Positions 6,123-7,785 of a stretch of 64,000 bases of DNA are shown here, piece after piece; positions within the stretch are counted from its first letter, which is position 1; each line of letters begins with the position of its first letter. Where the stretch lies: the sequence record PV682947.1. One strand, 5' to 3'. The translations under genes and the position numbers were made by a program. This DNA is from Escherichia phage WPEC4. The notes beneath the pieces are model-generated. The model ran no database searches, had not been told where the DNA came from, and saw only the letters and a list, made by a program, of their open reading frames with translations.

Positions 6123-6383
6123 TTACTCCGCAATTTGAGCCATGAGATCACGCAGTTCGGTAAAACCGCCTACGTATGTTACCTCCCCGTTCACTTCAGA
6201 TAGAATTTGTGGAAATGTGCGTGGAGGAACTCCGGTAAGATCAACAACTGTTTTAGTCATTGATTCTAAATCATAGTCTTGATCAAGACTTAAATATTCA
6301 AACTGTTTATTGCGCATGGTTAATAGTTGTTTTGACATTTCGCAAAATTGACAGTTAGGTTTACCAAAAATTACAAATTCCAT
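6123..6383 (-). CDS. glutaredoxin/NrdH-like redoxin
   Basis: 86 aa with CQFC active-site motif (CxxC); T4 NrdC-like size. Confidence 0.7.
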   Translation of the reverse strand: MEFVIFGKPNCQFCEMSKQLLTMRNKQFEYLSLDQDYDLESMTKTVVDLTGVPPRTFPQILSEVNGEVTYVGGFTELRDLMAQIAE

Positions 6384-7225
6384 TACCTCTCCTTATTAAG
6401 TAATACTGCTAAAGACTGTTCAATACCTTTATTTAAATCTGATTTTGTAAGATAGTGACTGGTTACTAGTTGTGACTTCACCGGACGTGCTGCTGGAGCA
6501 TTATAGGTTGAAGCTGATACCGCCGATATCTTAACAGGTTCTGGCATCTGTGTCAAGATCTTTTCCGCAAACTCCGCCCAAGAAATAAAATGGCTTCCTG
6601 CAAAATGGTAAGTCTTAACAGACCTTGACCAACCTGTTTTTAATACTTCAAAAATAGCTTCTGCTAAATCTGGAGCATATGTTGGACAAGAGAACTGATC
6701 AGCAACAATAATAAAATCACGTTGTCCATCATTATAGCGAGACAACATCGTTTTTAGAAAGTTATTTCCAAATTCGCTATATACTGAGGCTGTTCGAATA
6801 ATATATGCATTTGGGTTAACTCCTCGCACCATTTTTTCACCAAGTTCTTTCGTATACCCATAATTGTTTATTGGGTTAGGTGTAGTATCTTCAAAAATAG
6901 GATGAGAATAATTAAAAATATAGTCTGTAGAAATATGCACAAAATCAATTTTAAGTTTGCTGCACACTGCCGCAATATTTGCAGGTCCATACGCATTAAC
7001 AGCCAAAGCAGTAGCAAAATCATGTTCCGCTTTATCTACAGCCGTATAAGCAGCGCAGTTAATAACACCGTCTACATAATCTTCAACAATAGCGTTTCGC
7101 ACAGCTTCAAAATTTGTAATATCTACACGTTCTTTAGGATAAATTAAAGATACATTTGAAGGAACCACTTTACGTAAAGCTTGTCCCAGTTGTCCATTAC
7201 CACCCAATACCAGATATGTTAGCAT
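6383..7225 (-). CDS. rmlD: dTDP-4-dehydrorhamnose reductase (RmlD/RfbD)
   Basis: LVLGGNGQLG, NCAAYTAVDKAE, STDYIF, YGYTKELGEK, GNNFLKTML closely match RmlD signatures. Confidence 0.85.
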   Translation of the reverse strand: MLTYLVLGGNGQLGQALRKVVPSNVSLIYPKERVDITNFEAVRNAIVEDYVDGVINCAAYTAVDKAEHDFATALAVNAYGPANIAAVCSKLKIDFVHISTDYIFNYSHPIFEDTTPNPINNYGYTKELGEKMVRGVNPNAYIIRTASVYSEFGNNFLKTMLSRYNDGQRDFIIVADQFSCPTYAPDLAEAIFEVLKTGWSRSVKTYHFAGSHFISWAEFAEKILTQMPEPVKISAVSASTYNAPAARPVKSQLVTSHYLTKSDLNKGIEQSLAVLLNKER

Positions 7226-7785
7226 ACACCCTCGCTACGTAACTGTTGAAAAGATTTAGCCATTGCATCTTTTGTTGATAAAATAGGTTTAAAACCTTCG
7301 TCAAAAATCATATCGAAGCCCCAATCGATCCCTATGTCAGGATCATCCCAACGTAAACTTTGTTCACTAGAAGGGTCGTATGGAGTTGTGCATTTGTATT
7401 CAAAGATCGCATCCATACTCAAAACTATAAAACCATGTGCCAAACCAGGAGGAAGCCAAAACTGCGTATGGTGTCGTGCACGAAGAACAACACCGTCCCA
7501 AGCACCGTAAGTTGGACTATCTTTACGTAAATCTACAGCGAAATCCAATACTTCTCCACTTACACAACGAACAAGCTTACCTTGCGGGTTATTTGTTTGA
7601 AAGTGCATTCCTCGCAAAACACCGAAGTTTGATTTAGACATATTATCTTGAACGAAAGTTTGTTTACCAATGATATCTTCGTATTTTTGTTCATTGTATG
7701 TTTCTAAAAAGAAACCACGATCATCTTTATAAACATCTGGTTTGATAATTACCGCACCTTCAATTTTTGTTTTTTCTACTTTCAT
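7219..7785 (-). CDS. rmlC: dTDP-4-dehydrorhamnose 3,5-epimerase (RmlC/RfbC)
   Basis: DDRGFFLETYN, FVQDN.SKS..GVLRGMHFQ, GKLVRCVSGEV.DFAVDLRK, RWDDP.IGIDW match the RmlC cupin. Confidence 0.85.
   Translation of the reverse strand: MKVEKTKIEGAVIIKPDVYKDDRGFFLETYNEQKYEDIIGKQTFVQDNMSKSNFGVLRGMHFQTNNPQGKLVRCVSGEVLDFAVDLRKDSPTYGAWDGVVLRARHHTQFWLPPGLAHGFIVLSMDAIFEYKCTTPYDPSSEQSLRWDDPDIGIDWGFDMIFDEGFKPILSTKDAMAKSFQQLRSEGVC

Follow-up and report, generated by a model that had tools for sequence, protein, structure and literature searches.

The 64,000-nucleotide stretch of the Escherichia phage WPEC4 record (PV682947.1) analyzed here, called the window below, carries genes for the last two enzymes of dTDP-L-rhamnose biosynthesis, dTDP-4-dehydrorhamnose 3,5-epimerase (RmlC) and dTDP-4-dehydrorhamnose reductase (RmlD), without genes for the first two, RmlA and RmlB. 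The window comes from a phAPEC8-like lytic coliphage (Phapecoctavirus, Stephanstirmvirinae), the block in question being 99-100% identical to such coliphages; the nearest records are WPEC1, WPEC2, and WPEC6. On balance, genome comparison favors a reading in which RmlC and RmlD are functional, rmlA and rmlB having been removed by a clean 1,871-bp deletion, the precursor being drawn from the host, and the product being consumed by phage glycosyltransferases.

Three abutting open reading frames (ORFs) on the minus strand form the locus: rmlC (7219-7785, 188 aa), rmlD (6383-7225, 280 aa), and a glutaredoxin gene, grx (6123-6383, 86 aa). The initial annotation of rmlC and rmlD was correct, as the products pass the family cut-offs and keep the catalytic residues. 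RmlC scored 225.3 bits against TIGR01221 (curated equivalog cut-off 155.75) and 224.6 bits against PF00908 (cut-off 27, E = 7.8e-67). RmlD passed TIGR01214 narrowly (239.1 bits, curated equivalog cut-off 224.05), matched PF04321 (E = 2.8e-73), and scored below the cut-off of the enterobacterial-type model NF007440 (117.9 vs. 308). In the Protein Data Bank (PDB), the top matches are authentic RmlC and RmlD enzymes (E = 7e-56 and 3e-44, respectively). In the alignment with the E. coli K-12 enzyme, RmlC retains the catalytic residues H61, K70, Y130, and D173, which correspond to His63, Lys73, Tyr133, and Asp170 of Salmonella RmlC; RmlD retains the GxxGxxG motif (G8, G11, G14) and the Thr/Tyr/Lys triad (T100, Y122, K126), and the same holds for both enzymes in five other phage lineages. 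The rmlD start overlaps the rmlC end by 7 nt (ATGCTAA), and the grx start overlaps the rmlD stop codon (TAATG). A terminator scan found no minus-strand terminator-like sites between 8018 and 3430; a promoter scan was weakly informative (28 promoter-like sites vs. 18.8 +/- 3.8 expected). By virtue of the overlaps, rmlC, rmlD, and grx are still translationally coupled, and they are probably co-transcribed within a long leftward transcription unit.

Neither RmlA nor RmlB was found in the window by tblastn with the phage RmlA and RmlB and the K-12 RffH, RffG, RfbA, and RfbB; the lone RmlB match is weak (E = 2.5e-5), an expected cross-match to RmlD, and the window has no RmlB ORF. The absence of the two genes from the window, already noted in the initial annotation, is thus borne out, and whole-genome tblastn with phage RmlA/RmlB and the K-12 enzymes likewise found neither in the complete genomes of anhysbys and phi1_175008. 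The four-gene operon of Phapecoctavirus (phAPEC8, ESCO5) and Justusliebigvirus (phi92) occupies the same nrdB-grx locus with the same gene order. In ESCO5, whose RmlC and RmlD are 100% and 98.9% identical to those of the window, the order is rmlB-rmlA-rmlC-rmlD-grx, and the window follows this order collinearly apart from the loss of exactly 1,871 bp, with rmlB and rmlA. Base-by-base comparison of the window with ESCO5, SKA64, and PNJ1809-36 places the deletion junction between TGGTAAGGAGA, which is the rmlB ribosome-binding site, and GAAAATG, which is the rmlC spacer and start codon. The deletion scar with its ribosome-binding site lies at 7786-7800 (minus strand), GGAGA being at 7790-7794 and the TAA at 7795-7797 ending an upstream small ORF. 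The 3' part of that ORF (7795-8018, minus strand), a homologue of anhysbys gp193 and ESCO5_00182, is native and is cut by an assembly junction at 8018/8019; positions 7790-8021 of the window match 8267-8498 of the ESCO5 locus (L001). As four-gene phages such as SKA64 have GGAGA at the Shine-Dalgarno sites of both rmlB and rmlC, the deletion is a crossover between these two 5-nt sites, which took out exactly rmlB and rmlA and left rmlC under the rmlB site, that is, with a good ribosome-binding site.

Ten rmlC/D-only sequences were examined, namely those of the window, WPEC1, and eight further phages, and all have the identical junction. RmlC at 95% identity or more occurs in 64 phage records, about 43 of them with rmlA/B and about 20 (16 distinct phages) without. 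Within the genus, some two thirds have the four-gene operon. In the 216 nt upstream of the junction, phages with and without the deletion separate cleanly, and the tree of the 2.6 kb downstream is a mosaic in which rmlC/D-only and four-gene phages are unseparated, owing to recombination; together, the clean split and the mosaic tree fit a single deletion allele spreading by recombination. One phage, REC, is a documented recombinant of ESCO5 and ESCO37 (PMC10269720).

Comparison with other lineages indicates that rmlA and rmlB were lost independently at least three times, with rmlC and rmlD kept each time. The second loss is seen in DIJ07P2 (OZ035771), where an 802-bp deletion at a 9-nt microhomology took 717 nt from the start of rmlA and 77 nt from the end of rmlB. 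The third is that of a diverged Klebsiella-phage lineage (KP2025, phi1_175008, FKP3, KP13-26), in which RmlC is about 61% identical to that of the window and the gene order is nrdA-nrdB-small ORFs-rmlC-rmlD-grx. In addition, KP13-16 (OP617741) is a subfamily member without any rml gene, representing either the pre-insertion state or complete loss. An IMG/VR scan with RmlC gave two loci, too few to widen the sample. Two further features of these operons were observed. The deletion in DIJ07P2 leaves an in-frame fusion of most of rmlB with the final ~53 codons of rmlA, and the rmlC and rmlD of this phage are intact; and in the phiWec phages (phiWec179) RmlA is about 97% identical to that of Phapecoctavirus, but RmlC is 65% and RmlD 66% identical, a contrast implying that recombination broke the operon between rmlA and rmlC.

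The two-gene remnant is probably functional, given that rmlA/B were lost repeatedly and rmlC/D kept, that there are signs of purifying selection, and that the translational coupling is preserved. Both genes are intact in all 12 Phapecoctavirus sequences analyzed, as well as in phi1_175008 and KP2025, and are annotated as full-length in the remaining rmlC/D-only records. Between KP2025 and phi1_175008, the RmlC genes show 66 synonymous and 15 nonsynonymous differences, with a ratio of nonsynonymous to synonymous substitution rates (dN/dS) of 0.036; for RmlD, dN/dS is 0.053. Among nine rmlC/D-only Phapecoctavirus, RmlC has 25 synonymous and 4 nonsynonymous polymorphic codons and RmlD has 23 and 10, respectively, and neither gene is interrupted by a stop codon. 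Some points weigh against function or its exact assignment. First, the Phapecoctavirus deletion is recent, its carriers being 98.7-100% identical, and intactness there is weak evidence. Second, part of the polymorphism may have come by recombination from four-gene phages, as the mosaic tree and REC suggest. Third, the Klebsiella dN/dS test assumes that the rmlA/B loss is older than the divergence of KP2025 and phi1_175008, and in this pair the dS of RmlC (0.94) is far above that of RmlD (0.25), which suggests recombination. Finally, since TIGR01214 was passed narrowly, the RmlD product could conceivably be the C4-epimeric 6-deoxy-L-talose.

The recency of the deletion would also suit a decaying relic, that is, a pathway dead since the loss of rmlA/B, with rmlC and rmlD persisting as neutral passengers still undecayed. 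The ten amino acid polymorphisms of RmlD among the nine rmlC/D-only phages point the same way, as do the apparent dispensability of the full operon, rmlC/D-only phages growing well on many hosts, and KP13-16, which lives without any rml gene. We nevertheless consider decay improbable: the genes are intact or full-length throughout the sequences listed above, the low dN/dS values come from two diverged Klebsiella phages both lacking rmlA/B, three independent events took rmlA/B and never rmlC/D, and the deletion spared a good ribosome-binding site for rmlC.

A functional remnant requires a precursor, and the proposal of the initial annotation that a phage with only the last two steps could draw on the host pool of dTDP-4-keto-6-deoxyglucose is plausible in the light of both the retention of rmlC/D and the distribution of the host genes. 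Of 5426 complete E. coli genomes, 5306 (97.8%) carry, at 95% identity or more, the rffG-rffH pair, which makes dTDP-4-keto-6-deoxyglucose in the synthesis of enterobacterial common antigen, while rfbC is detectable in 2348 (43%), a count that, because of the limited sensitivity of blastn, is a lower bound and to that extent tells against the contrast. It is well established that rffG/rffH can replace rfbB/rfbA, as reportedly shown by Marolda and Valvano in 1995. With the first two steps near-universal in the host and the last two not, it becomes understandable why it is rmlA/B that a phage of broad host range can lose.

The sequence of events would be as follows. The ancestral operon of the subfamily, rmlB-rmlA-rmlC-rmlD, would have been inserted between nrdB and the glutaredoxin gene in a nucleotide-metabolism operon and then shortened by the crossover described above. 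In the infected cell, host RffH/RffG or RfbA/RfbB would supply dTDP-4-keto-6-deoxy-D-glucose; to judge from family membership and conserved catalytic residues, phage RmlC would epimerize C3 and C5 and RmlD would reduce C4, giving dTDP-L-rhamnose. The phage would need its own last two steps because, by the E. coli counts, many hosts lack rfbC/D, while nearly all have rffG/H. The dTDP-L-rhamnose would most likely feed conserved phage glycosyltransferases of the gp014, gp015, and gp016 types, a link suggested by co-distribution, and the acceptor of the sugar is probably not bulk DNA.

These glycosyltransferases, which the initial annotation proposed to look for in the rest of the genome, are indeed present outside the window. 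The rmlC/D-only phage anhysbys has four of them (gp013-gp016; NC_052656, 10294-13438), adjoining the primase/helicase genes, and all four fall into PHROGs glycosyltransferase families (E from 1e-78 to 1e-149), with only sub-threshold Pfam matches. The gp014 type is found at 60% identity or more in 130 phage records, compared with 131 records with RmlC, and both sets have nearly the same composition by organism; phi1_175008 retains the gp014, gp015, and gp016 types. A PDB sequence search with gp014, gp015, and gp016 gave no match; fold searches assigned two of the three types to GT-A folds, and the predicted folds match glycan and protein transferases but did not reveal the acceptor. Neither Ser/Thr-rich tails on capsid or decoration proteins nor transmembrane segments in the glycosyltransferases, which would have hinted at a protein or a membrane acceptor, were found.

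The rml genes were seen only in genomes with glycosyltransferases, and the three glycosyltransferase types are conserved across the whole subfamily. KP13-16 served as a falsification test of the link and speaks against a strict one: it has all three types, yet no rml gene anywhere, so that phage rml genes are not a strict requirement for these glycosyltransferases, which may draw on other donors. The subfamily thus has zero, two, or four rml genes beside a constant glycosyltransferase triad, a pattern expected if the rml genes are an optional donor supply, although it is a correlation only. A tentative extension, somewhat short of probable, is that Stephanstirmvirinae possess a glycosylation system of their own, consisting of the triad and a donor module of zero, two, or four rml genes that the host can complement, with a virion protein or a host-envelope glycan, not bulk DNA, as the target. 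If so, the series of KP13-16, the window phage, and ESCO5 would offer a natural genetic system, ready for use in identifying that target. A comparable case may be virion glycosylation in cluster F mycobacteriophages, e.g., Maravista (PMC11256854), with whose glycosyltransferases gp015 shares 25-29% identity over ~130 residues; both are glycosyltransferases of phages not known to alter host antigen, but no Ser/Thr-rich capsid or decoration tails were seen here.

It is also conceivable, although unlikely, that the two enzymes act on host metabolism without building any glycan, either by draining dTDP-4-keto-6-deoxyglucose from common antigen and O-antigen synthesis or through inhibition of RmlA/RffH by dTDP-rhamnose, sparing dTTP; the drain, if real, would mean reduced receptor display on the host. 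dTDP-rhamnose is a feedback inhibitor of RmlA, and the rml genes are embedded among genes for ribonucleotide reductase, ThyX, glutaredoxin, and a nucleotidase. Moreover, Vequintavirinae have been described as bona fide phages targeting common antigen (Maffei et al., PMC8594841). Most relatives, however, encode RmlA and RmlB as well, which would raise, not lower, the consumption of dTTP, and the co-distribution with glycosyltransferases suggests that the product is transferred.

Glycosylation of DNA bases was one of the uses of the sugar raised in the initial annotation, and this suggestion was not supported. Under it, the glycosyltransferases would place rhamnose on modified bases of phage DNA as a defense against restriction, similarly to glucosyl-hydroxymethylcytosine (HMC) in T4. 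The location of the rml genes in a nucleotide-metabolism operon and of glycosyltransferases beside the primase/helicase and DNA polymerase genes would agree with such a role, and gp015 marginally matches the PHROG of beta-glucosyl-HMC alpha-glucosyltransferase (E = 5.8e-6) and, below the cut-off, a TET-associated glycosyltransferase family of Pfam (E = 0.0011); rhamnosylated bases were indeed proposed by Olsen et al. 2020 (PMC7552041). On the other hand, phi92-like relatives with the full machinery were reported to be 'exceptionally susceptible' to restriction-modification 'despite a putative dTDP glycosylation machinery' (Maffei et al. 2021, PMC8594841). Phapecoctavirus DNAs of both types, including that of the rmlC/D-only ESCO37, are cut by HincII and were typed with this enzyme, and none of the three HincII-resistant phages of that study was among its Phapecoctavirus members (PMC10269720). 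No ThyA-type hydroxymethylase was detectable in three complete genomes and the window by tblastn with E. coli ThyA (best E 0.06-0.11), a search with the sensitivity of tblastn and not of a profile; only ThyX (PF02511) is present. The likeness to T4-type DNA glucosylation is confined to a phage nucleotide sugar with glycosyltransferases and the placement of genes near replication genes, whereas the hydroxymethylase was not found, the DNA is restrictable, and the glycosyltransferase folds match glycan and protein transferases. Thus, hypermodification of phage DNA with rhamnose appears very unlikely.

Two methyltransferase-like genes had been taken as a further hint at DNA modification. Their products indeed match phage DNA methyltransferase families: the product of 2463-2972 (minus strand), an orphan enzyme with the NPPF motif, belongs to PHROG 799 (E = 2.2e-59), and that of 50707-51390 (plus strand), which is Dcm-like and corresponds to anhysbys gp166 (75447-76130), belongs to PHROG 757 (E = 1.8e-84), neither having a significant Pfam match. 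The first gene is a native neighbor, ~3.1 kb downstream of grx, and its location is conserved in phi92, KP2025, and anhysbys; the second lies natively ~10 kb downstream of rmlD, its position in the window being an assembly artefact. Both are ordinary orphan phage DNA methyltransferases with no link to the sugar genes.

The glutaredoxin, too, is a true neighbor of rmlD, as initially annotated, but it does not belong to the sugar pathway: in KP13-16 its gene directly follows nrdB with no rml genes between. Upstream of rmlC, every relative with a normal assembly has four small ORFs followed by nrdB and nrdA, and the nrdB-glutaredoxin gap in the other relatives consists only of the rml insert and small ORFs; the phi92 annotation notes homologues of nrdB and glutaredoxin in PVP-SE1 as gp139 and gp141, respectively. 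The CxxC motif (CQFC, residues 11-14), the match to PF00462 (38.1 bits vs. 22.9), and the synteny with nrdAB identify the protein, at the level of sequence, as the partner of ribonucleotide reductase in an nrdA-nrdB module.

The gene order of the window is unnatural. Judged against the normally assembled genome of anhysbys (NC_052656), the window consists of assembly-graph contigs and junction nodes strung together in scrambled order: 1-940 corresponds to 54.85-55.79 kb of anhysbys, 1173-8018 to 81.25-88.10 kb, 8019-38912 to 19.38-49.38 kb, and 45583-64000, inverted, to 81.25 to 62.94 kb, the junctions being at 940/1173, 8018/8019, 38912, and 45583. The block 1173-8018 is the sole native context of the rml genes, and collinearity with every normal genome stops at 8018/8019. 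For 941-1172, between two mapped blocks, no anhysbys alignment of 400 nt or more covers the stretch, which may contain further junction fragments. The 6.6-kb block at 38926-45582 is built from ~55 pieces, which are 77-155 bp long and lie in both orientations. Every piece is centered on one of six genome positions, five of which are breakpoints between the large blocks of the window; the 77-bp unit matches the largest default k-mer size of SPAdes. We considered and rejected a biological repeat array at 38.9-45.6 kb, since every piece maps to contig-breakpoint flanks in 77-bp units; the block is an assembly artefact without biology. The WPEC1, WPEC2, and WPEC6 records are 155-161 kb long, compared with ~150 kb for the genus, and their block joins differ in each. 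From the differing joins, the excess length, and the mapping of the fragments to breakpoints, we infer that the source is concatenated assembly-graph contigs, probably unfiltered graph output, with a polymorphic phage population as its possible origin.

Such scrambling is the one circumstance that would favor a contaminant from a bacterial O-antigen cluster as the source of the rml genes. This origin is effectively refuted, given that 1173-8018 is 99.3% collinear with normal, independently sequenced phage genomes and that the enzymes are diverged from those of the host: phage RmlA/B, RmlC, and RmlD are 50-63%, 50%, and 31% identical to the E. coli (K-12) enzymes, and none of the rml genes can be a recent E. 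coli capture. Furthermore, the same genes are present in more than 60 phage records, and neither a complete rml operon nor O-antigen genes were found nearby, so that the initial assumption of phage DNA was sound. The enzyme families and catalytic residues are those of the bacterial dTDP-L-rhamnose pathway (E. coli rfbBDAC; rffG/rffH), the differences being that the window has the last two steps only, no O-antigen genes, and a setting in the nucleotide-metabolism operon of a lytic phage.

The rmlC/D-only variant as such is already known, RmlC and RmlD being annotated in dozens of GenBank records as canonical enzymes and the lack of rmlA and rmlB in ESCO37 being stated in PMC10269720. Nothing substantive distinguishes the window from the other phages of this type (ESCO37, anhysbys, nepoznato, ZCKP1, Mt1B1_P17, ECO340P1, SF1-1, ABPW7, and others), which have the identical junction and 98.7-100% identity in the block, except that its source record is mis-assembled. 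Our analysis adds the deletion mechanism, the repeated rmlA/B loss with rmlC/D kept, the gene counts for the host, and the series of zero, two, or four rml genes next to an unchanging set of glycosyltransferases. As a discovery the feature is ordinary, and the question it raises is of moderate interest: broad-host-range phages of this type are popular therapy candidates, two papers flag the 'dTDP glycosylation machinery' as unexplained, and the comparative picture narrows the question of what, if anything, these phages rhamnosylate, natural variants making cheap tests possible.

Downstream of grx on the same strand lies a native block (4664-6117) with a 49-aa ORF (5968-6117), a T4-type lysozyme gene (5460-5960), and a PhoH-like ATPase gene (4664-5473; Pfam), whose order is the same in all relatives. 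The SprT-like, TerC, macro-domain, and phosphoribosyltransferase genes to the right of 8019 were rejected as functional neighbors of the rml genes, this adjacency being an assembly artefact. Within 10229-14098, a TerC-family membrane protein, a macro domain, a ComF-like phosphoribosyltransferase, and a HAD-like hydrolase are encoded in a run, which may represent a nucleotide- or NAD-related module. Finally, 94-99% identity to these coliphages is also seen in records labeled as phages of Campylobacter, Acinetobacter, and Pseudomonas and as 'Dompiswa' phages; their host labels are probably wrong, or the phages were contaminants.

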